Shown: one piece after another, positions 1-47,892 of the stretch
How the letters are laid out: every line of letters starts with the position of its first letter
Position numbering within the stretch: position 1 is the stretch's first letter
Assembly (NCBI GenBank): GCA_010405405.1
Contig: MU004239.1
Location: forward strand, 868,001-932,000
Origin: Microthyrium microscopicum
Lineage: Eukaryota
Direction: 5' to 3'
Length of the DNA stretch: 64,000 nt
Program-made: the position numbers and the translations under genes
Notes under the pieces: generated by a model
Seen by the model: the letters and a program-made list of their open reading frames with translations, nothing else
Databases searched by the model: none
What the model was told of the DNA's origin: nothing

Positions 1-621
1 GGTCCAAACAACCCCATGGCTCACTTCAATGCTTACCATACTCCTCCCGAGTCCTTCTGAGTCAACCAGCCTGCCAATGTGCCTGTAAATACGCGCCATC
101 TCGGGCCGTCCGAAGTCCCAAGCTACAATGTCCATCGCAATCATGACTGGTGTCAAACAGCAACCCGTCCCCCAACTGTGGCGTTTGCGACCATCATCTC
201 AACTGCAACGTTCTCAACGTATCGCGTGTCTTCCATCCTTCTAGCTACCAAATTCAATCCCTACTTGACTCGAATAGGTATGTCCTACTTGCAACCTTTG
301 CATCCACTACTGAGCCGTGAATGACGGGAAGATCTAGTTCTAAAGCCAAAAGCAGAAGGTAATGAACCAAAATGTACCCCCATTACAATCCCATCCATTC
401 GGTATTCTATAATTCGTTTTCTCTTAGTACGCAAAGTAGGCCGTGATGGCGTTTTTGGTCTAAAGCCTGGTGTTCATCTCTTCTTCTATGAGCATCTTAA
501 ACATGGATAAATAGCAACCCAGTCCTTCCCATCTTGACTTTCGAATATCAACCATTCAGTCATTCGCTCACTCTTGGTCTTTATTATCTAATTCTTTATC
601 TTCTTCTTCAATTCTATAATC

Positions 622-1991
622 ATGCACGGAATCAAATCTATTGCAGCCATTGCTGGCTTGGCTAGCTTGGCTGTTGCTTCTCCTGTTGAGAAGAGAGCTA
701 CTCCTGGTAGCTTTCAAATCAAGCAGGTTCAAACTGGCCAGAAACTCGCCGTTGGTGCTGTTGCCTACCAAAAGGCGTACCAGAAGTACAACAAGGCTGT
801 CCCAGCTGTCGTTGCCGCGGCTGCCCAGCAGGGTGCTGTCACTGCTACTCCTGAGCAGTATGATTCTGAATATCTCTGCCCTGTCACTGTTGGTGCAAAC
901 ACATTGAACTTGGATTTTGATACTGGATCAGCTGATCTGTAAGTTTATGAATCGGTTCCTCAAGCTGAACCTCAAAAATACTAATTCGCCACAGATGGGT
1001 TTTCTCTAGCTTGCTTCCATCAAGCGAGCAAGCAGGCCATAGCATCTATAACGTCGCCTCCGGCAAGAAAATCACTGGAGATACCTGGAAGATATCCTAC
1101 GGTGATGGCTCTGGTGCCGCTGGTACCGTTTACGCAGACAAAGTCGTCATTGGTTAGTACATTCCATCATTTGTTCAAACCACAACTAATGCCATATCAG
1201 GACCTGTCACCGCCACCACCCAAGCCGTTGAAGCTGCTACTAGCATCTCCTCCGCTTTCCAGCAAGACACTGACAACGATGGTCTAGTCGGCCTCGCCTT
1301 CAGCACCATCAACACCGTCTCCCCCAAGCCAGTGACCACCTTCTTCGACACCGTCAAGGCCAACCTCACCTCCAAGCTCTTCGCCGCCGATCTCAAGAAG
1401 GGTGCCGCCGGTGTCTATGACTTTGGCTACATTGACACCACCAAGTACACCGGCAGCATCGTCTACACCCCCGTCGACTCCAGCCAGGGATTCTGGATGT
1501 TCACCTCCACCGCCTACAGCATCGGAACGACCAAGACCTCCGCCTCCATCTCAGGAATCGCAGACACCGGTACCAGTCTTTTGTTGCTCGATGCCAGCAT
1601 TGTCACCGCCTACTACAAGAAGGTCACTGGATCCAAGAACGATTCTACTCAGGGTGGTTATACATTCCCTTGCACTGCTACACTTCCCGATTTCTCCATC
1701 ACTGTTGGTGGCGCTGTTCGCACCGGTAAGTTTTTCCCGTGATACTTCGTATCCTCTTTTTCCAAGATTACACGGCATATGTGAATTAAATGCTGATTTT
1801 TTTCAATAGTTCCCGGCTCATACATGAACTTCGCACCAATCGACAACACAGGCAAGACCTGCTTCGGCGGCATCCAATCCAACGCTGGTGTCGGATTCTC
1901 CATCTTTGGAGATATTTTCTTGAAGAGCCAGTATGTCATCTTTGACCAGACCACCAGCTCTCCAAGGCTTGGATTCGGTCAACAGGCATAA
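622..1991 (+). CDS. pepA: Secreted aspartic protease (aspergillopepsin/penicillopepsin-like, peptidase A1); 4 exons ~622-938, 995-1152, 1201-1725, 1810-1991
   Basis: Signal peptide [21 protein letters not shown] and pro-region with KR. Both catalytic motifs are present ([19 protein letters not shown]), plus the C-terminal [20 protein letters not shown] introns join the exons in frame. Confidence 0.95.
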
Positions 1992-2681
1992 ATTCGAGCC
2001 GCAGGGAACCGCAGGCGAGATCCGTTATGATTTCGCACACATGAGAGTTGCAGGCATGATATTGCATACATGAAAGCGTGGAAGGAAGAGACTGGTGCAC
2101 TTTTCTTCAATTCGATTCATTTACTCTCCTTAATCTATTTAGGTACCTATTATTGTCTATTTTGCACGCAAATATTTAGTGTTTATATGAGTAGATCTGG
2201 AAGCAAGCGTGGCTTAGATCCCTATGATGAGAATGAAATGTTTTAGCCCCCAGAATTCAATTGTTCTCTTCGTGTATGCGTGCGTGGCTGAGCAAGGGAG
2301 CGTCTTTATGAAAGGTTTCTCAAATCTGGTCTTTTGCCCTGTCTTTCTACAGGTAAAGCGAGACAGTCATTACAGCCTAATGATTCTCAAATCCTTCCTG
2401 ACATTTCAATATAACCAAGGCGAAAATCTTTGGGTAGAACCAGGGATGTTTGCCACGCGAATCCTTCCGGTTTATGCCTCGAATCCTATTTTCGTAAGGA
2501 CGCATCCTGTCTATAGGGCTCAATATATATTGCTGAACCTTCAAATCCAAAGGACGCGGCATCAATAAGAAGAGCCAGCGTCAGCACGCGATGGCCATGT
2601 AAACTAGATAGTACACACATTCACTTGATATTCACTCGCTAAGATTATTCACTCACAGCTACACTAAAGGAGTACTACAAC

Positions 2682-3014
2682 ATGAAATTTTTACTACTCT
2701 CTGCTCTCACTTCGCTGGTCGCGAGTGCGCCAATACAGAATATAAGCTCAACAGGTGAGATCATTTTTCGGGCGATTGTTGTGATATAAAAGTCTTCCAC
2801 TAACAACATTCAAGACCAAGGCGCTTCGATTCAAGCAACTACTACGGACGAATCACTGGCTGGAAATGTTCCACCTCCTCTTCCCAAACAACCATTTCCA
2901 ATTCCAAGTCCTGATCCCTACGGAGGCAATGGTGGGACTTCTCATTGTGACCCACCTATTACACAGTCATGCGCGCCATTCAGACATGATCCAAAGAGGG
3001 GGCCGTATCGCTGA
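2682..3014 (+). CDS. Small secreted Pro-rich protein, ~90 aa, 2 exons (2682-2754, 2815-3014); not in the ORF track
   Basis: ATG in acaacATG context and signal peptide MKFLLLSALTSLVASAP. Phase-1 intron gtgaga...ctaac...caag. Exon 2 is open (DQGASIQ...VPPPLPKQPFPIPSPDPYGG..HCDPPITQSCAPFRHDPKRGPYR*). Confidence 0.75.
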
Positions 3015-3643
3015 AGTCGGACCAAGGACTGCTATGGAAACAATGGGATATGATGAACTTCGATTTAGCGCTTAAACTGTGTGAGGACTGCAGGATTTAT
3101 ATGGCGTTGTATTGAAGTCATATCAGCTATGTTTGTAGCTTCAAACCTAAGCCGGTTGGTGTTAAAGCTGCACAGAACTTTGACTATTAAACGACGCGCT
3201 TTATTCTAGTGCTAGATTTCCCATCATACTTGAGAAACGACCTGAATTCTACTTCTACTATAATTACTCATGAAGATGAAGTTCCCCTTGTGTAATAGAA
3301 CCTGGCAGACATGAGCAGCAAAACCGGCAGCTATTCGCCAGCGATAACATCCATGCGTTGCTAGGCCTAAAATGAAAGACGAGGATTTAATTTATTTCAT
3401 GCTGGTCAATAACTTAGGTTTTGACAGTTCTAAAAGTAGCCACCGCCCTGTCACTCACAAATTGGAAGGATTCAGACAGCCTGAGAGCTAGAATCCTCTT
3501 ATTATTGTTAACCTACATAGATTTTCATGGAAATCTCCTCAATAATTCTGCTTATTATCATTGATGGGGTTTAATTCTAGAATTTGAATGTACAGTAACA
3601 ACAATCCATTTCATGATGAACTTTAACCTGACCTAAATCATTC

Positions 3644-6583
3644 ATGGAGCCAATTACCATCAAAGTATGTCTGCGCGCAAAAGCTGAACACCACACCTCG
3701 AGTGCTCCCATCGATCTCGTTGCCTAAGCATGATTCCATCATGGAGTGTCATAGTAGGCATCGTAGTTGCTGGGAGTTTACTACTTGGTCTGCTCACTAG
3801 TTGAGAGCACTCAAAGTTAAAGAAATCACTCACATCTTTCAGGGCTCGCACTTCTTTTACGAACAATCAGGCCTGCAGTTCTTCGTTCGTGGCATCAAGT
3901 ATCAGTACAATCCACCACTGGACCGAAAAGGGGCCAAGTCTACGCCAGCGAGTACGATTCCCTACGACTTCAACCCTCCAGTGTGGCGACACTGCTTGAT
4001 AATCTGCTGAATATGCTGTCGAAGGGATACTAGTCGCTTCCAATTCAGCAAAGTAGCAACAGCTCACGCACTTTGTTGGCTGGCACCGCCTTTGATGTTT
4101 CAACACTAACTTCACAATAGACATCTTGCAAGCCGACCCACTGATAGACATAAAGGATTGCGAACGAGATATACCGTTTCTCAAGGAACTAGGCATAAAT
4201 ACTATCCTAGTAGAGTACATAAGGCCAGACCCAGAAACAGACCATTCGCCGTGCATGAATGCGTTTCAAAAAGCTGGGATATATGTAGTTGTCCACCTAG
4301 AAGCTTCCAACGAGTCAATCAACCAGCTACAAAACTGGGATCGAGAGCTGAAGGTAAGTAAAAAGCATTATTTCCACTCATATCGTGCTTGCATCGGCGA
4401 TTTCCAGTGCATTTGATGGCTCACATCGCATCTGATGGCTCACATAGCATTCGATGCTCTCCTTATTGTGTCATTGCGAGGGTGGCTCTCTCAGAGCATC
4501 TCAGCCTTGATATTTTTACACCTATGCTAACAAAAGTTAGGCCCGATGGCTCAGAGTTGTCGATAACATGGCCCCATTCGTTAACGTGTTGGGTTTTTTG
4601 TCTCCCAGTTCCTATATCACATATGCCTTTCTCAAGGTAAGACATCTGGTGGAAGCATCTTGTTTTCTGCATGATAGCCAACGCATCTGGTGGCTCCCTC
4701 GCATCACATGGCTGCCATAAAGTGCTTTGGCCTATTGGATTCCATATTTCATTCGCATACTAATGAACCTTAGGCAGCTATCAGAGACGTCAAAAAATAC
4801 ATCATTACCAAAAGTTATCGTCAAGTTCCTATTATATCAGACGGGTGGGTCCGAGGGAAAGACACTTTACAGCCTTTGAATTGTGGTAAGTTCTTATACA
4901 TAATATATCTTTTGGCGCTACCAGCGCCTGTTGTGGATTCCAGCGCACTCCATGGACTCATGACGTGCCATGAGATATCGCGCTGGTAGGACTTCTACGT
5001 CTTTCCAATGCGTGTGATCTTTGTACTGATCAGTGATCACTTGTATGGGTGATGTTCAACTAATCATTTTTAGGTGACAAGAACAGCTCAATAGATGTCC
5101 TATTTACTCACCTTGAGAAATGCTCAGATGATACGGTTACTCAACAATCGATTGCGCTTACGAGGAAAACATTGGGCGACTATCCTTCCCCAGTAGTATA
5201 TATGGCTCAGAATTGCGGATCAACAAACAGCGTTGGCTCATTGCATAACATATTCGACTCAAACGCAACTAGCTTTCTATCTGGAGCCATCATGTCTTCA
5301 TATTTTGGAGACTTTATCAGTAAAACACCAGGTATAATGGATGTGGAAGGATATAATGCTACCAGAGGTCCACAATATGCAACTCTTTCCAAAGAAATTG
5401 CATCAGTCCAACCAAGTCCTACTTCGATAGCACAATACACTCCAACAAACACCATACCCAGTGTATGCGAGTCACACTTTCCAGTGGCATACACTAGTAA
5501 CGTAACGCCCTCTGGCGCTGTTGCTACAATGGATTTCCACATAGCAACAAGTCTCCCACCAACGCCAAATCGACGACTTTGTGAATGCATGATGGCATCG
5601 CTAGAATGCGTTGCAAGTCAGCAATATCGGCCACAGCCTTTCTGGATTGACGCACCCCGACTGAGCCGCAACTATCCCGTACCGCAAGAGAACGCGCTGA
5701 AAGAGGGCATATGCAAGGAGAATCCTAGCTGGTGTTTGGGTAGCGGCTCAGATCCGTCTGTAGGACAGTGGGGATCGTTCGGCGGGTGTAATGCCACAGA
5801 GCGCGGTTCCTGGATATTGAATCGGGCCTTCAAGGCAAAGAACAGCGATGCTGGGCTTTGCCAGAGTTTGAACGGAACCATTATTCGGTCTACTGTCCAA
5901 GATCCACCGAATGACTGCAAAATCATGCTTGCTCAGGCAGGTCCGCAGGGTACTGGCGAAGTCACTTATAGCGCGCCTGAGCTCTCTCGTGAGAAGCGAC
6001 CGGGCGACATTGGGGATGGTAAGATATCCCTTTACTCGCTTTTCCTAATGATTACTATATCCTCCATAACACTCGGTGGCTTCCATCGCATTCGATGGCT
6101 AGCATCGTATATTGTGGGAGTTTACCGCAAAATGGTGTCTGATTCCTTTTTTATTATTTTTGCTCTAGATATCACTGACACATTCCAGGCGCTACACCAT
6201 CTGGGAGTCGCATAATCCCCATGGTAGTCGTTCCTGTGGTATTACTACTGTTCATAATTGGTTTACTGCTGTTCTATCTACGGTGGCGCAGAAATAACAT
6301 GAAGAAACAAGATGAAGTCTTCGAGAAAGCAGAGCTTCCAGGAGATGCTGTGGCTGCTAAGGCCAGTTCGTCACCGCTAACGCTGAACACGACTGAGCTA
6401 AGTGTGACGGGAAACGAGCTGAACGAGGCTGATCCGGACACTGCACTTGTCGAGCTTAGTGGTAGGGATATACAGGAACTGGACGGCGTATGGAACGAGA
6501 TGAAGTATGATGTGGCAGAAACGGTGTATGTTGAATTGCCCACCGAGTTCAATACCAGAGGAAAGAGCTCTCAGCTTAGTTAA
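3644..6583 (+). CDS. GH72 (Gas/Gel beta-1,3-glucanosyltransferase)-like protein with X8/CBM43-like Cys-rich domain, one TM helix and cytoplasmic tail; probably catalytically inactive; 7 exons: 3644-3664, 3843-3951, 4121-4353, 4541-4636, 4774-4885, 5074-6018, 6189-6583 (~636 aa)
   Basis: GH72 motifs PITIKGSHFFY..G.QFFVRGIKYQ, DPLID..DCERDIPFLKELGIN, DHSPCM..FQKAGIYV, AAIRDVKKYI..K.YRQVPI, LNCG. X8-like LPPTPNRRLCECMMASLECV...WGSFGGC. All splice phases are compatible and the exons sum to 1911 nt with no internal stop. Confidence 0.85.
4396..4452 (+). repeat. Three tandem ~19-nt units in GH72-like intron 3 (GGCGATTTCCAGTGCATTT / GATGGCTCACATCGCATCT / GATGGCTCACATAGCATTC); related units in introns 2, 4, 5 and 6
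   Basis: Read directly from the sequence. Related copies lie at 4075-4093, 4670-4718, 4932-4959 and 6075-6112. Confidence 0.75.
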
Positions 6584-6865
6584 TAAACAATTGATTTGAA
6601 ATACCAGCCATGTAACTGTCTCAGCTGTTGCATTAGTCCGCCATAAGCAAACTTCCAGATCTAGTCCCAAACTCATGACGCACAGTGCGATACCAATAAC
6701 GAAGCAACCATACAGGAAGCTGGTGTATTATACTAATGCTCCTGCAAGTGTATCTGAGACAGTCTCGTATCATACCGTGCCAGAGTTCTGCCCATGATTA
6801 TCGCCTGTTTCTGCCCGGGATTGATGGAAGGTGCCAGGAGGTGTTGTCATCCGTAGGCCATTTCA

Positions 6866-7915
6866 TCAGATTGCTCTCTTTGGAAAGGAACGAAGTATCT
6901 CGGTAGTCCTTCGGGCCAGTGGCCGCAGCTTCGATAGCCAATTACTTCTTTCAATGAATTCGCCATTTGCCATAGCTTGCTCAGATCGGAGCAATTTTGC
7001 TCTTACAACTCGCTTTTGCATGACTTTCCTCTTCGATCTCATCTTTTTGTAGAGAATGTCTTTGCTCTTGTGACGTGATTTATCATCTTTATCGGCACCT
7101 TTCTCATTGTTCGTGAGTTTTGTGAACATGACTTGCCGGAGTGAATCTGCCGAACAAGGAGTGATAGTGATATCTTGCAAGATGTTATCCGGCTTCTTGA
7201 TGAGAGCCTCTTCACTCTCGTAGTTTGCATCATCGTCCATATCGACATCATTGTCATTGTCTGCGAGTTTGGCGAATATATCTTGAAGCATTGAATGTGC
7301 TGAACAAGGGGTGATCGTGACATCTTGCAATGTCAAACCTGGCCAATGTTCAATCATCATAGATTGGACAGATCTTCTGAGGACAGTGGCAAGCGTGTCT
7401 GCTCTCTCATTCCCCTCAATGCCCTCATGTGCAGGCACCCATCGAAGCTCAACGATGATACCAAGATCATAGAGAATGTTAGCGTACTTGACCAAGCTAT
7501 TCCTCAGTTCCGGCCTCGAAAAGTAGGTGAACGTCTCTCTTCTCTTTAGGCCTTCTAGTAGACCAAGGCAGTCGCTGAGTATGATGAGATGGTCGAAGTC
7601 CTCACTCTTGTTACAAGCAACGCGGAATGCTTCCTGGATTGCGATCATCTCCGCCTCCTCGGAATATCTTGCGCCGCACTTGAGGGTGTTGAGTGTGATA
7701 AGCTCCGTCCATGTTTTGGATGACCAGTCGAGATATGTCACTGCGGAGGTAACTAGTCTATCTGCTGCCGCTGGAGAGCCTGGCGCTGATCCATCCACCC
7801 AAATGACCAGTCTCCGTTCGATTATGCCTTCGTTGTATATATCGTTGGCAATTTGCATTGCTATTGATCTCTTGTGGGTGATAATGCCCTCCGGAAATGG
7901 ATACAAGGACTCCAT
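6866..7915 (-). CDS. Standalone RNase H1-like protein (non-LTR-retrotransposon-type RNase H domain) with duplicated C-terminal segment and basic tail
   Basis: Intronless 349-aa ORF with RNase H motifs VIWVDGS, EAEMIAIQEA, IILSDC and LRWVPAHEGIEGNERADTLA, so the D-E-D-D acidic set and the His loop are intact. Confidence 0.8.
   Translation of the reverse strand: MESLYPFPEGIITHKRSIAMQIANDIYNEGIIERRLVIWVDGSAPGSPAAADRLVTSAVTYLDWSSKTWTELITLNTLKCGARYSEEAEMIAIQEAFRVACNKSEDFDHLIILSDCLGLLEGLKRRETFTYFSRPELRNSLVKYANILYDLGIIVELRWVPAHEGIEGNERADTLATVLRRSVQSMMIEHWPGLTLQDVTITPCSAHSMLQDIFAKLADNDNDVDMDDDANYESEEALIKKPDNILQDITITPCSADSLRQVMFTKLTNNEKGADKDDKSRHKSKDILYKKMRSKRKVMQKRVVRAKLLRSEQAMANGEFIERSNWLSKLRPLARRTTEILRSFPKRAI
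7095..7335. repeat. Diverged direct duplication with 150-bp period inside the RNase H ORF
   Basis: tcattgttcgtgagttttgtgaacatg...gaacaaggagtgatagtgatatcttgcaa (~7104-7180) versus tcattgtctgcgagtttggcgaatata...gaacaaggggtgatcgtgacatcttgcaa (~7254-7330). In protein this reads LQDVTITPCSAHSM versus LQDITITPCSADSL. Confidence 0.8.
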
Positions 7916-8726
7916 GGCGCTTTGTGGGTATCATGTGAAAAATTTGAGGTAATTGAGCGACTGGGGCTATTACGCTATAGCGAGAGAAAACGATAATGTA
8001 GGAATACTTTGGGTAGGATGATGGTCCAGGTATTTGAGTCTGGATATACCTATAGAATGGCTACCTGTAGGTACACGACCTTTCGACAACGTGTGGTCGC
8101 TCTTTCCTAAAAGAGTTCTCTTATCAGCCTTTCTTGTCTCTCTGCGAATCCAGTCGTGACCTAAAATAGTAAGAGCGCGGCAAGTGACGAGATTGATTTA
8201 TTCCACACGAAAGAAGGAAGATCGCGCCAGTACTGAGGCGTCGAAAGAGGAGATATACCAGCAGCCACTGCCTAAGTTTGACGGATTGACATGCTTCCCA
8301 GTGGCATTAATCAAATGTTCGAATGAAAATAACATTCCCAATCTTAGGCAACTAATTTGGCTTCTTCTTATTCGAAAGGTCAACACTGGTACAAGTAAAG
8401 AATTGTGGTTATCATGGAACGCTACTGGATTAAGGGGCCATATGATACATCGGAATTTTGATACTTAGTGGGCACTCGCTCATTAGGAAATTAAGAAAGT
8501 TACGGTACGTTAGTACTAGTAGCTAGATGTATACTTGGTTTAGGACATTCTCTTTCAAAAGGCCATATCCTCTGGCTTTGATACCTGACTATCTTGCCGC
8601 CTCTCTCATGTTCCTATTTTGAATCTTTCCAGAGTGCCACTGGGATTCTTGACTGCAGCCACTGATCCTCATCAAAGCACTTCTCTATACTCAAGACTAC
8701 TTACTGATAATCACTATCAGGGGAAA

Positions 8727-9845
8727 ATGGGGCAAGCGCATAGTGAACCCATGCCGGCGCCGCCCAAGGAAGACAACACCACGAAAGCAGAATATGTATC
8801 GCACGAGGAAGTTCGCGCCCTACTGAAAGAATATCTGACACCTAGCAAGCAAGGCAGAAGCTCTTTAACATACACAACAAAAAGTCTTCGCAATGCCTCC
8901 CAAGCTGATGACTGGATGGATGTTCAAAGCCCAATTCCCGATGAAAAACAAGACATTATCCACAAAGAGCGTATACACAATTCGACCAAGGAGGCCGACA
9001 AGGACAATCCAAGTCCTCAACCTCTACTCCATACCAAACGGCACACCCAAAGCACCCAACTCATCCCCGACCGACAATCCCACCACGGCCTTTTCCATAC
9101 ATGACAACCAATCTCCATCAACCAGAAGTCCGCCACAAAGCATATGGATCAGCCCACCGTCGAACTTCGCGCACCTGCTCGCGTTCTCAAAAAAGCTAGG
9201 ACTAGACATCGATCCAGCGCAACTCATCCCCAGCCTTTCCCTCCCGAATTCACCGGCTACACATGGTCCGCCCGCTGGAACCTCATCCACATTGCCAACA
9301 GCTATACCGCAGCCAATTCAAGGACCTCAGATCTGAAGCTATTCAACAGCATCTGAACGCACACGCCGAACACCGCTCTGTGCGCCAGATTACTTCCCAT
9401 ACCAGCCCGACGACCGCAAACGTGAACTGCACTACATATTCACGTGCCGCCAAAACTTCCCGCACGACAATGGCGCCTACATATCACAAGTGGGTGGCTG
9501 GAAGAGCATCCAGACTGGGTGGAGTTTCGCCGCTATGTGAAGAGGAGATTTGTAGTGGCGAGTTTTTGTCTGGGCAGGGAGATGGGTTTGATAGGAAGTT
9601 GTTTGCGGGAGCGGTGGTGGAGAAGAAGTAGAGGTATTTTCGGAAGGAGTTTGTGGATCTGGTGCATTGGGCTGGGTTTGAGGTTGATGTTCCGCAAGAT
9701 GGGAGTCAAAAGTGGTGTGCTCATGATTGGGAGACTGGTGAGAAGGTAGCGCGTATTTATTTGGGTTGAATGGCGGGAGGAAGCGGAGGCGAAATTGAAG
9801 GAGAAGAGTGATTTGCTGGATTGGATAGATGCGGATTTGCAATGA
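8727..9845 (+). pseudogene. Probable decayed hypothetical gene (protein-like segments spread over several frames with stops)
   Basis: Start MGQAHSEP... at 8727. Protein-like pieces (WISPPSNFAHLLAF; WLEEHPDWVEFRRYV; EEICSGEF...EKK*RYFRKEFVDLVHWAGF; EWREEAEAKLKEKSDLLDWIDADLQ*) switch frame without clear introns. It shows the same C-rich 5' / G-rich 3' profile as real genes here. Confidence 0.35.
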
Positions 9846-10312
9846 GGAGGAAAAGCAGGAAGGAACAGCAATATCATAGGCTTTGAAAAACTCAGCTACA
9901 CAAAGCACAAAAGCATAAACAAACAATAGAGGAATTCATTAATATCAATGCAAACCGCCATGCCGCTCGGCAATCATACAAATAACACTTCATACAAACA
10001 CTTCCTACAACTGTACCTCACAGTATCATCCACACATGAACCTTACCGCCATCCACCAGGATCGCAAGCTCACATGGTATTGCAAGATCAGTAGTTTCGC
10101 AATACCCACCGGGTATCAAATCACAAAGCCCAGAAACACCTTTTTACACCGCGCACGTTTTGCTTTCCCAATGCCTGCCAGGCCAATCATAAAAATACTC
10201 CTTAGAAATGGTATAAATGTATCGTTCAACATGATCATCACTGCATTATCCCCGATCCACAACCTCATGACTGAGCAAAGTGGCCAGTCGCCGGCATGTT
10301 GTTTTGCTGCGG

Positions 10313-12968
10313 CTATTGATGTTGCTGCTGCGACATCTGTTGCTGACATATTTGTTGGTGTTGGTGTTGCGGTATCTGTTGGTTTGCAGATTTCGAGAGG
10401 CTTTCAGTAGTCTCATAGTGCATCGAAAGACCGATCCCCGAATCATCAAGTTCCAGATCAGTCTTCGGCTCATCATCTAGTTGGCGCATGAGTTGAGCCA
10501 TGCTGTCTTTTGACATTTGGGGCGCGCTCGTCGGTGGGTAGATGGGCATGCTTTGGTGTTGTTGTCCCATTTGTGCGTGTGCCATGTGCGATACGTTGGA
10601 CACCGGCCCACCTTGGAATCCCGCTTGGCCATTGCCAAAGCCGGCGCCGCCCGTCGTCGGGCCACCGAGATCAGATGGCGTGCTGCGGTACGAATTGGTG
10701 CCGGAGGGTCCGCCGGACATGCCGCCGTTGATGCCGGCGGCGAAACCAGAGTGTCCATTGGGCATGCTATCTTGCCGCACGGGGTGGTAGGGTGCCTCGC
10801 GTTCAAGGAAACCGCCGACGTGGACCAGCCAGAGAAGGAGTTCGTCGACGAAGCATTTTGTGAAGAGCCACGGAAGATAGCTCTCTCCAGACTGCATGAC
10901 CACATCGCGGACAATATAGCTCGTGACGCCCTGGACGTAGTGTACGAGATTTTGCGCGCTCACTGTTGGGAAGCGCTGTTTGAGGTCTTCCAAAAATCGG
11001 CAGATCTTCTCGAATTCAAAAGCAGCAGGTTGGGGTTGCGCGTTTTGTGTGTATGCTGCAATCTCGTAATGTGTGCCGACTTCGAGACCATGATCGATGG
11101 TCAGTGGGAGAAGGAGTTCGCGCATATCGTGCGTGAGGAGACGATACACCTCCTCGTCATATCCACAGTCCGGCAGGAAGGCGTTCATTATGCATTTGGG
11201 CTGCACATAACGCACCATCTCCTTCCACATGCGGTCGCGATTCGCTTGGTCGATGAGGACGATGCCGGCGTTGTGGGCGACATTGTTGACTCGCAGCATG
11301 CGATTCAGCAGTTGGCTGAAGATGGTTGCGGGCTCAAGTTTAGCGTCCAGTACGTGTTTTGGTAGTGCTGCAAAGGTTTTTGAGATGTGGCCATCCAGAA
11401 GCTGGGAAACCGTGTCGCAGAATTTAGAGACTTTTGCTGGGAGCACTTGGAGGGAGAGGGGTGCGATGGTTTTAATCATGGCTTGATACATTGTATAGTC
11501 GCATTCTTTGACCCATGGCGCTAGGTTTGGATGGTTGAGAAGTTTTTGAACGGGTACTGTCAACGTTCCGGAGAATTGCGTAAATAGACGAAAAAACATT
11601 TTCTCTTTGCAGAAGCGCACACAATCGACGAGAGAGGTTACATGACTGTGATAGAGAGTTGTTAACGCGTTGGCTGCGTCTATATCGGTTTTTGGTGGCG
11701 TGTATTGGAATATATCCGGTAATATTATATCCTCTGGTGGTTGATGTACAAATACGCGTGTTGTGGGGAATTTGAGGCGGCTATTGTAGGATCGGGTGCC
11801 GGTTGCTCGATGAGGTGCGTAGACAGGCTCCTGGGGAGAAGGAAATACTCGTCCTTCTACTTCCGGTAATGCAGGAGCTGTGGTTGTTGCTGGAGAACCC
11901 ATGGATTGATCGTCTCCTGGGATGACTGCTGAATCTGGTTCAAATCTAGGAATATTGCTAAACAAGTCAGATTATGGGATATATGAGATATTGTTAACTT
12001 ACTCTAGGGCCAACGAGTTGCGATAAGAATGTGTTTGACTTGGTTTGCGACCTTGGTTTGCACCAGATTCTGTCATGTCTTCGGCAAGTGACAGATCAAC
12101 GTAATGATACTTTGATTCCCCTCGTACTCCCAGTCTTCGAGTTTGAATATCTGGGAAGATGACGCGCACCAGTTTACCAAAGGAAGCTGGGTTCAGAGGT
12201 TGTAGATGATGTTTGGCGCATCTTCCAGCATATTGTGTGTGGACTCGAGTTCTTGGTACAGATCCTTTGGCTTTTATCAAATTACGTTCCAACCTGTGAT
12301 GTGTTAGTATAAATCATTGGTTCAAGTCTAAAGGCTTACCAAAGCATGGCAAAAAGCTGTTTTGTCTTTTCCGCAGATGAAGTCTTTTCGTTGGCTTGTA
12401 CTTCGGCAGCCAAATCGTCCAAAGATCGCCCTCGATTATTTTGAAGCATGGCTTTTAGCTCACTTTCGTTTGGACCTGTTGATTGGCGAGGTTTTCGAGC
12501 TTCGAGTTCGATATGTTGCATTCCGTTTTGCATTCCATTTTGCATGATATGTTGTTGAGGATGACCAGTGAAACTATACTCCATCTGGTTGTTGTCGTAA
12601 GGAATTGGCTGAGCGGTCTGGAAATATCCTGTTTGTGGCTCACGGGGTACGTGATGTTGAGGATGAACGGGTAGTTGATTGTTGTGGTTTACATGTACGT
12701 CCACAGGCGTTTGCGAAAGTTCTCGCGAATTTTCTTCTTGAAGCATTCTAGCCATTCCAGATGTATCCATGGCCAGAAGATGCGACTCGTCTATTTGATG
12801 CGACAGTTGAGATTGCGGAACAGTTCTCGGCGGCGGATAGGGAGCTCCGGGTTCTTGCATGGACATGCGCGATTGATATGAATGCAGACTAGCAGTAGAA
12901 TTTGATGAATGGGGTCTCACGGGAGCAGCGGTGTTTGACCGTGACCGCGAACGGCGTTGAGCGGGCAT
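10313..12968 (-). CDS. RFX1: RFX winged-helix transcription factor (Crt1/Sak1/CpcR1 family); 3 coding exons ~12968-12340, 12293-12003, 11957-10313
   Basis: RFX DNA-binding domain (FAMLWLERN...SVPRTRV..QY..RC...LQPLNPASFGKLVRVIFPDIQTRRLGVRGESKYHY) followed by the fungal RFX C-terminal/dimerisation region. Confidence 0.92.
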
Positions 12969-28429: not shown

Positions 28430-29350
28430 ACTATAGTATAAACTACTACTAAACTATTATTAAGGATTAATAGTGTTAACTACTAAATCTCTAGCTTAAT
28501 AAATACTAAACTAGTTTCTTTATTACTTAGACTTTCTTAGTAATATTTTAATATAATATTACTATATAAAGCTTTAAAGAATTTAAGTTAAATATATAAA
28601 TAGACTTCTTAATAAATATAGCTAAGCCTTATATTTTTATACTTAGTTCTATTATCTTAATAGTACGTATTAATAATATTAACTACTTTTATAATACTAA
28701 TAATATATTATAAACTAAAAAAATTAATAATATAATAAAATATTAAATATTTATTAGATATTTATTTTAGTAATTATTATTCTTTTACTTTTTTATTTTT
28801 AGAAAGTTAGTAAAGTAGAGATATAAAGTAATTTAAGTTATATAATATATATATTATATATTAAGCTATTACTTAGCTTTATTAAATTTTATTATAATTC
28901 TTTAAAAAAATAAGTAATAAAACTTAGACTATATTTCTTATATAATTTAGTACTTTAATCTTAATATTATTATTATATCTATTTACTATTAAGAAAAAAT
29001 ATCTTTTTTAGTAATACTAAAATATAAGTAATAATATTTATTTTAGTTTTATTACTACTTTAAATAAACTAGAGTAGAAGCTTAAATAAATTAAGGCCTA
29101 AATAGTATAATATATAAACTTAGCTTTTAGTCTTCTCTAATAAACCTAATATTATATTATTTAGTACTAATTTTATTAAAGCTTTTACTAGCTCTATTTT
29201 ACTTATATTTAACTATATTTTATTCTTTTAAATAATTATAGCATTAAGCTAAGATAACTAATTTAAAAAAGTCCTATTTTTACCTAGCTAAATAATATTA
29301 CTTTTAGCTTAACTAATAAAATAAAATATAATTTTTTTAAAACTAAAATA
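28430..29350. mobile_element. AT-rich island, probably a RIP-degraded transposon relic (family not identifiable)
   Basis: Abrupt switch to very high AT with abundant TpA and near absence of CpA/TpG. No ORF >=60 aa in the track, and the boundaries are sharp. Confidence 0.75.
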
Positions 29351-46798: not shown

Positions 46799-47892
46799 AT
46801 GTCTGCTGGTCTTGTCCTGGTAATTCCACTCCTGTCTTGGTCTATTATAGTCAATTTAACGCGAACCAGATAACCGGTGCGACTGGTTTGATCGGATACA
46901 GTGTTGTTGTAGAGGCTCTCAGATCTGGCTATAGTGTTCGAGCAGCAGTTCGTTCTCAAGCCAAAGCCGACAGAATTCTGGCAACAAAACCGATCAAAGA
47001 ACTCTGGAGCTCAAACCCGGTTGCCAATCTCTCATTCGTCTTCGTCCCAGATATTCTCGCCGACGGAGCCTACGACGAAGCAGTACAAGGTGTCCAATTT
47101 GTAATACATTTAGCGTCTCCTGTTCCAAACCAGAATTTGATAGAAGACTTTGAAACTCAGCTGATTCAACCTGCGGTGAAAGGCACAACCGGAATTCTGA
47201 CTTCAGCTCTGAAGACAACAGGCATCAAACGGATCGTGATAACCTCTTCCACCGGGGGCATTGTTAGCTTTCATGATCTTATTGGATTTGGAACTGGAAA
47301 GACATTCGATGGAGACCATAGAGTGCCGGCCGATAATGGACCATATGCACATGTCATGCAAGCTTACGCTGCCTCGAAAGTCAAAGCCCTACTAGCTACC
47401 GATGAATTCTTTGCCAACAATAAAACCGAATTCGATCACGTCAATATCATGCCCAGTTTCGTCCTTGGTAGGAACGACCTGGCTACGACACCCGAAGAGA
47501 TTGCTTCGAGCTCAAATGGGGTGCTGATGCGACTTGTGCTTGGTCACGATGCGCCTATGCCGTTACCAGGCACGACTGTGCATCTTGAAGATGTGGCTAA
47601 GATGCACGTTCTTTCCCTGGACTCTGCAAAAGTGGCCGGAGGCTCGAACTTTGTAGCGACTTCTGGTGGTTTAGAAGGCATTCAGTTCAACGACTACCAG
47701 GAGATTGTAAACAGAAGGTTTCCTAGTACCATTGAGAACGGACGGCTGCCCAACAATGGTACCCTCACGACTAAGTCACTCAAGCTCGATGCGTCGAAGG
47801 CGGAGACAGTGTTTGGCTTCAAATTTCAGGGATATGAAGAGCAAGTAGTCAGTGTTGTTAGGCAGTATCTTGAGATATTGGGCAGTTCTTAG
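46799..47892 (+). CDS. NAD(P)-dependent epimerase/dehydratase-family reductase (Gre2/Ari1/aldehyde reductase II-like), exons 46799-46819 and 46870-47892
   Basis: VL|ITGATGLIG Rossmann motif, VIHLASP, IQPAVKGT, RIVITSS, YAASK (YxxxK), VHLEDVAKMHV. Confidence 0.92.

Follow-up and report, generated by a model that had tools for sequence, protein, structure and literature searches.

All six introns of BT63DRAFT_458535, a GH72-like gene of the Dothideomycete Microthyrium microscopicum, are long relative to the introns of neighbouring genes and contain, with support that grades from strong to weak, sense-strand copies of the same 19-nt quasi-palindromic unit. The gene lies within a 64,000-nt stretch of contig MU004239.1 (assembly GCA_010405405.1), referred to below as the window, and the unit, whose consensus derived from a position-weight matrix (PWM) is GATGGCTCCCATCGCATTC, recurs at a few other places in the genome. 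We tentatively favour, at well short of even confidence, the view that the six introns are decayed paralogues of one intron-type duplicative element, the outcome of an old, introner-like duplication that occurred within the same transcript or at low copy number. The layout of the gene is as follows.

3644..6584, plus strand: GH72-like gene BT63DRAFT_458535 of Microthyrium microscopicum; seven exons, open spliced frame of 636 aa
3644-3664, 3843-3951, 4121-4353, 4541-4636, 4774-4885, 5074-6018 and 6189-6584, plus strand: exons 1 to 7 of BT63DRAFT_458535
3665-3842, plus strand: intron 1, 178 nt
3952-4120, plus strand: intron 2, 169 nt
4354-4540, plus strand: intron 3, 187 nt
4637-4773, plus strand: intron 4, 137 nt
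4886-5073, plus strand: intron 5, 188 nt
6019-6188, plus strand: intron 6, 170 nt

The intron boundaries and lengths put forward in a prediction made earlier from the sequence alone (the original prediction) are borne out. All six introns are of the GT..AG type, with branch-site-like motifs 11-18 nt ahead of the 3' end, and their removal yields an open frame of 636 aa that matches the NCBI protein BT63DRAFT_458535 at 100% identity. Exons 2 and 3 match the Pfam family PF03198 (Glyco_hydro_72), and exon 6 displays a weak match to X8. The alignment of the protein with solved GH72 structures is unbroken across the junctions of introns 3, 4 and 5, and homology therefore supports the introns. The RNA run considered here, which is the run that contains spliced contigs over the upstream aspartyl-protease gene and may include DNA or unspliced RNA, contributes to this gene a single contig of 163 nt (5577-5739, in exon 6) and none that spans or overlaps an intron, a result that is uninformative on splicing or expression.

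The contrast in length that the original prediction had drawn with the neighbouring genes also holds, with eight introns of 48-84 nt against six of 137-188 nt. Five of the six introns span 169-188 nt and the median of the six is 174 nt. Spliced contigs of the RNA run define introns of 60, 56, 48 and 84 nt in the upstream aspartyl-protease gene and a further intron of 60 nt at 2753-2812, while the boundaries of the UBC13 introns (58, 54 and 51 nt) were read by eye from the sequence. The median of these eight neighbouring introns is 57 nt (Mann-Whitney p 0.0024).

Introns 3 to 6 carry arrays of two to four units, and introns 1 and 2 carry single or degenerate copies. The copies quoted in the original prediction were all found in place, and a PWM scan added a unit-like site in intron 1 (9.1 bits). 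All parts of the repeat lie on the plus strand:

3700-3718, plus strand: unit-like site in intron 1, newly found
3740-3781, plus strand: unit plus 'tail' in intron 1, of which 3758-3781 is common to intron 6
4075-4093 (extending to 4097), plus strand: one degenerate unit in intron 2, the weakest member
4396..4469, plus strand: array of intron 3, with units from 4396, 4415 and 4434 and a partial unit from 4453
4481-4499, plus strand: additional degenerate unit in intron 3, from PWM scans
4670-4725, plus strand: core array of intron 4, in which one unit has a 1-nt deletion
4642-4662 and 4735-4754, plus strand: other unit-like stretches of intron 4, read as units by eye
4913-4969, plus strand: array of intron 5, with units from 4913, 4932 and 4951
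6056-6112, plus strand: array of intron 6, with units from 6056, 6075 and 6094 and with the 'tail' common to intron 1 after it (6102-6125)

The PWM scan recovered seven strong sense units, all within introns 2-6, with matches at 19-nt intervals in introns 3, 5 and 6, and Tandem Repeats Finder (TRF) reported 4409-4456 in intron 3 as a repeat of period 19 and 2.5 copies. By these two measures the head-to-tail units fall within the definition of a minisatellite (unit of 10-100 nt). Overall the units are 70-85% alike, with two units of intron 3 identical at 17/19 positions, and the junction between two units in intron 6 reads CCATCGCATTCGATGG. The array of intron 5 is enclosed by a perfect 10-bp inverted repeat (4917-4926 and 4979-4988), and, read by eye, the interior of intron 4 appears to be mostly repeat-derived. 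A higher-order structure of alternating a- and b-units was considered and rejected as too weak: a-units of different introns share on average 13.3/19 identities, compared with 10.25 between a and b within one intron, while for b-units the figure across introns is no higher (9.2). Strings in the unit that resemble transcription-factor sites were judged by eye to be chance occurrences and were dropped.

The relatedness of the introns was assessed by comparing all 15 pairs with 200 dinucleotide shuffles. No shuffle was as good as the real alignment for pairs 1-6 (z 6.7), 3-4 (z 6.4) and 3-6 (z 5.5); a further three pairs, 5-6, 4-6 and 2-3, gave p values of 0.01-0.03, and the remaining 9/15 were not significant against these controls. 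Reverse-complement comparisons were significant for 0/15 pairs. When leave-one-out nhmmer profiles were searched against both strands of the window, introns 3, 4 and 6 were recovered as top matches (E 2.7e-7, 1e-5 and 6.6e-6, respectively). The segment that introns 1 and 6 were claimed to share is present (3758-3781 against 6102-6125), and is identical at 20/24 positions. After the seven strong units had been masked, 7/763 intron positions still matched the PWM weakly (≥4 bits) on the sense strand, compared with 85/63,061 elsewhere, a 6.8-fold enrichment (p about 1e-4). The pairwise and leave-one-out results, the 20/24 segment and the PWM scans together mean that the original prediction of related sequence in all six introns is strongly supported for introns 1, 3, 4 and 6, marginally for intron 5 and weakly for intron 2. 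The similarity is local: aligned blocks extend over only 23-38 nt at 76-83% identity, and the mean column identity of a MAFFT alignment of the whole introns is 38%.

Pattern, profile and PWM searches of the window found no further copy of the unit, in agreement with the original prediction. On the forward strand there are eight PWM matches of at least 13 bits, seven of which lie within the six introns, and there are none on the reverse strand. The best match outside the gene, at 47303-47327 (E 0.2-0.4), is inside a long coding open reading frame (ORF) and was set aside as a chance match. Within the introns the position of the repeat is also regular. The first unit begins 35, 123, 42, 33, 27 and 37 nt past the start of introns 1-6, respectively, such that 5/6 offsets lie inside a 16-nt interval, 27-42 nt past the 5' splice site (simulation p about 0.004, with the width of that interval chosen after the data had been seen). 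Simulation with only the four robust arrays gave p about 0.014 for the clustering of offsets.

A single orientation and a common distance from the 5' splice site would also be displayed by a putative cis-acting RNA element, one of the alternatives named in the original prediction, and this explanation is possible, if doubtful. The arrays, ~30-40 nt past the 5' splice sites, would in this case allow the introns to be spliced or retained jointly, through a bound factor or through folding, in this gene and in a few others with the same repeat, in a Mer1-like fashion. As this is a proposal about function it is compatible with an intron-type duplication as the origin of the sequences. It is consistent with the conservation of the block alone between random flanks, with the presence of a unit in every intron, always in the sense orientation, and with the non-random offset. 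None of the six intron lengths is divisible by 3 (chance p about 0.09), and retention of an intron would therefore shift the reading frame. Mer1 acts as an intronic enhancer of yeast meiotic genes, and known enhancers of this type are motifs of 6-8 nt. A short element that is repeated in the introns of a small gene set could likewise couple splicing here, although the repeat consists of homologous 19-nt tandem units and not of 6-8 nt motifs. The likeness of only 70-85% among the units and the degenerate state of introns 1 and 2 argue against a cis-element; the homologous unit would still require a route of duplication, and the near-identical tandem pair of intron 3 behaves like a neutral minisatellite.

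Predicted folding bears on both origin and function. Each whole intron folds below the mean of its shuffles, with z from −0.6 to −3.4 and a Stouffer z of −3.5, an observation in line with an intron-type element. Local hairpins of 60-76 nt form from the blocks of introns 4, 5 and 6 (z −3.0, −2.0 and −2.8), in keeping with a cis-element; however, the boundaries of these hairpins were picked after the stems had been seen. The stems that enclose the blocks of introns 4-6 differ, which is explicable because the unit itself is palindromic. The palindrome at the unit junction, CCATCG..CGATGG, is perfect only in intron 6 and is broken in intron 4 when read by eye, and this, in combination with the lack of a consensus structure, speaks against a cis-element.

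The hairpins of introns 4-6 could also be read in favour of small RNAs, snoRNA-like or hairpin-derived, with one copy encoded per intron; an intron-encoded small RNA in multiple copies was among the alternatives of the original prediction. UGAUGG and CUGA strings can be seen by eye in the units of intron 3. In introns 4-6, however, these box-like strings lack conservation, and no conserved C/D boxes were found in the introns. Interruptions break the stems, which are short, and no consensus fold emerged. Apart from two chance-level matches elsewhere, Rfam gave no match to E 10, and none in the window reached the gathering score; a tRNA scan found nothing. These data make an intron-encoded small RNA very improbable.

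Contigs assembled from DNA of the source sample were compared with positions 1-12000 of the window at 80% likeness. Foreign contig pieces of <90% identity numbered five over these 12 kb, and 4/5 of them fall in the 1,029 nt of the six introns (p 2.5e-4); by chance, such matches would number about 0.006. The matches on the arrays cover 3741-3777, 4404-4440, 4405-4448 and 6064-6100, each with 5-7 mismatches, of which the intron 1 match (3741-3777) has five. In the source genome, intron blocks are thus matched by at least four other contigs, over 37-44 nt and at 81-86% identity. The flanks of the contigs are unlike those in the introns and are, by eye, again readable as 19-nt units. Because at least four other contigs match the arrays and have unlike flanks, the 19-nt repeat is, to judge from these contigs, a low-copy dispersed family. 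A contig of the RNA run also matches 6064-6100, in intron 6, with unlike flanks, and one other copy of the repeat may thus be transcribed, bearing in mind that the run may contain DNA. Such a copy would fit a retained intron under the cis-element explanation. A metagenome scan for the two-unit pattern gave 0 matches. Identity between the intron copies and those at other genomic sites (81-86%) is as high as among the intron copies themselves (76-83%), and intron-to-intron conversion, which had been proposed as one source of the similarity, is therefore not favoured.

The dispersed copies raise the alternative that the repeat was acquired at the DNA level, whereby a low-copy dispersed minisatellite or small non-autonomous element entered introns that already existed, either through templated repair or by hopping locally, and was later expanded by slippage. 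The insert would have been tolerated because it is spliced out. Similarity that is confined to intron interiors is the signature given to secondary insertions and microsatellites in section 15 of PMC9860276, and the tandem sub-intron similarity seen here, which stops short of the boundaries, resembles the interior transposable element (TE) and microsatellite class that is described there and that introner surveys discard as false positives. The tandem array reported by TRF, the intron 3 units identical at 17/19 positions, the unlike flanks of the genomic copies and the quasi-palindromic unit, which favours slippage, are consistent with such an insertion. In contrast, the class set out in that section predicts neither a single orientation, nor a common offset, nor presence in every intron of one gene. 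The probability that inserts would share one orientation by chance is 0.125 for four robust copies and 0.03 for six, and the offset common to 5/6 introns is likewise unexpected (p about 0.004-0.014). A single gene holds four to six matches within 1 kb while the other 61 kb of the window has none, a concentration that would not be expected of a family with few genomic copies. No terminal inverted repeats or target-site duplications common to the copies were found, and the 10-bp inverted repeat of intron 5 has, by eye, no flanking direct repeat. In addition, the introns remain long (49-138 nt) once the recognised blocks have been subtracted. Acquisition at the DNA level thus appears rather unlikely.

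ILEs, or introner-like elements, of Dothideomycetes were reportedly treated by van der Burgt in 2012. In section 15 of PMC9860276, introner and ILE families comprise many near-identical copies whose similarity reaches to within about 10 intronic nt of the intron ends. The portions of Collemare 2013 (PMC3609843) and Collemare 2015 (PMC4457414) that are relevant here report, respectively, that ILEs have roughly twice the length of ordinary introns, and that ILEs occur in Dothideomycetes, where four genes gained two ILEs each. Both sources, in the same portions, propose whole-intron duplication at the RNA level as the mechanism behind same-gene intron duplications (SGDs), low-copy introns (LCIs) and ILEs in fungi. 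In those accounts ILEs resemble the six introns in being spliceosomal introns of a Dothideomycete that are much longer than ordinary ones, sense-oriented and perhaps endowed with some predicted structure; several can occur in a gene, and the family decays quickly. The differences are that the similarity reported here is restricted to an interior array of 40-75 nt with 70-86% identity, that about four other loci were detected, and that the species has a row of zeros, its column headings unread, in a published survey. SGDs and LCIs, as presented in the relevant part of PMC3609843, are akin to the present case in that related introns are found in one gene with a few copies elsewhere, that the flanking exons are not duplicated, and that the proposed origin is transposition of an intron within the same transcript; the same part gives at most 16 SGD members per species. 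SGDs and LCIs are, however, near-identical and of ordinary length and folding energy there, whereas all six introns of one gene are involved here, at three times the normal length, with likeness only in the core, and near-identity of whole introns, as in SGDs, is not seen among the six. The six-intron repeat therefore resembles ILEs and SGDs but lacks the defining properties of both. A limited literature search found no description of a gene-wide intronic repeat of this kind in M. microscopicum.

The proposal that the six introns are paralogues of one duplicated element can be set out as follows. The element would have consisted of a 5' splice site, a spacer of ~30-40 nt, an array of quasi-palindromic 19-nt units and a variable 3' part holding the branch site and 3' splice site, with a short tail after the array in introns 1 and 6. 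It would have spread at the RNA level within its own transcript and to a few other loci, a route that would yield sense-only orientation, similar architecture and similar lengths. Slippage may later have altered the arrays, as the 17/19-identical pair of units in intron 3 suggests, while the sequence outside the array would have decayed past recognition. The array could have been kept alignable by constraint or otherwise; local hairpins or a bound factor are candidates for such a constraint, and either may aid the removal of introns three times longer than the local norm. Whole-intron duplication at the RNA level would explain at once the single orientation, the restriction to one gene, the similar lengths and the common offset, and the concentration of the repeat in this gene, with no copy in the other 61 kb of the window, also favours it, as does the fact that the host belongs to the Dothideomycetes, from which ILEs were described. 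Under the range of rates given in PMC12130899, identities of 76-86% would correspond to an age, which we infer only roughly, of 6-145 My.

Several observations weigh against this proposal. After removal of the arrays the flanks are unrelated (mean z 0.07 for 10 upstream pairs and 0.32 for 15 downstream pairs), and neutral decay of whole-intron copies alone cannot leave a core of 76-86% identity between flanks that no longer align. Duplication by itself thus leaves unexplained why only the array is alignable, and the proposal therefore needs a constraint on the array. Taken singly, folding is significant in only 1/6 introns (intron 5, with 1/200 shuffles as good), and RNAalifold found no stem that encloses the four arrays in common, only an internal helix of eight pairs without useful covariation. 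Intron 5, although top-ranked in the leave-one-out searches, is marginal (E 0.052), and intron 2 was not recovered by them on either strand of the window (E 0.24-0.43). The many near-identical copies with end-to-end similarity that characterize introner families are not found among the six introns and, because the similarity is confined to the intron interior, they would not be classed as introners under a strict definition that asks for similarity to the intron ends. In the supplement of Gozashti 2022 (PMC9860276) the row for Microthyrium_microscopicum_CBS_115976 is all zeros, with column headings unread; it should be noted that the filters in the corresponding part of that work would drop pairs of introns within one gene. 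Finally, a copy of the repeat in a contig of the RNA run would not be expected of an efficiently removed intron, although that run may hold DNA or unspliced RNA. The original suggestion of an introner-like or mini-element family therefore survives in part. The dispersed family, the sense-only orientation, the threefold length and the common offset agree with it, while the dissimilar ends, the low copy number and the zero row of the survey (columns unread) do not.

Several features of the encoded protein were also observed. Both catalytic glutamates are missing from BT63DRAFT_458535, which has FLSPSSY and YMAQNCG where a solved enzyme has FFAGNEV and FFSEYGC, and its C-terminus is predicted to form a transmembrane helix and cytoplasmic tail rather than a glycosylphosphatidylinositol signal. 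The nearest relative, P0002 (680 aa), is 33% identical over 96% coverage. As P0002 shares both the glutamate losses and the tail motif RWRR..KQ.E.FEKAELP, the two sequences suggest that they belong to a pseudo-enzyme subfamily that has been conserved; no relative was recovered when metagenomes were scanned with P0002. P0002 has no insertions across all six intron-junction positions, but its contig of 4,141 nt may be genomic or transcript-derived and therefore carries no evidence on intron gain. The annotated start of BT63DRAFT_458535, MEPITIK, lacks a signal peptide. An ATG at 3527, upstream of that start, encodes MEISSIILLIIIDG, a sequence similar to the hydrophobic stretch at the N-terminus of P0002; by eye, it could join PITIK in frame via a candidate intron of 81 nt (3569-3649) that is of normal size and repeat-free but has an unusual 3' site, GAG. 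A stretch of 27 nt that comprises the end of exon 4 and the 5' splice site of intron 4 (4615-4641) is 78% complementary to 5107-5133 in exon 6, a match that may be due to chance.

Elsewhere in the window, an uninterrupted ORF of 354 aa on the minus strand (6869-7930), directly downstream of the GH72-like gene, contains an RNase H domain (PF00075, E 2.8e-8). An unrelated stretch of 40 nt at 8081-8120 matches another genome contig (seven mismatches) and a contig of the RNA run, and, because both have unlike flanks, it is apparently a second short dispersed repeat. Two segments of the aspartyl-protease gene, 913-945 and 1415-1437, are matched by a single genome contig with 674 different letters between them; this contig probably represents a paralogue of the protease gene. 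At 28689-28904, several TRF entries form a cluster of tandem repeats that are AT-rich and of low complexity. A differently labelled run, which was not used, contains eight short contigs at low word depth on positions 1-12000, none of them on an intron. As 7/8 are 100% identical to the window, this fungus, or one almost identical to it, seems to occur in that run at low abundance.

If the arrays are secondary minisatellite insertions, the gene would be a curiosity and a caution for introner surveys. That introns can be gained when they reverse-splice into the same transcript is a long-standing proposal with, to our knowledge, very few natural examples. Fungal ILEs are thought to decay rapidly into ordinary introns, and intermediate stages are rarely seen. 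Should the favoured explanation be true, a gene whose introns all retain one sense core, equally far from the 5' splice site, would represent such an intermediate of decay. In the strongest form of this idea, which we consider improbable, the whole intron complement of the gene was made or rebuilt by one low-copy element transposing in its own transcript, with the array kept for joint removal or retention, and the six introns would form a small 'intron regulon' together with a few other loci, in a species from which introners have so far not been recognised. With one gene, six introns and a handful of loci, BT63DRAFT_458535 would then provide a compact test case for distinguishing a core selected for splicing from a slowly decaying repeat.

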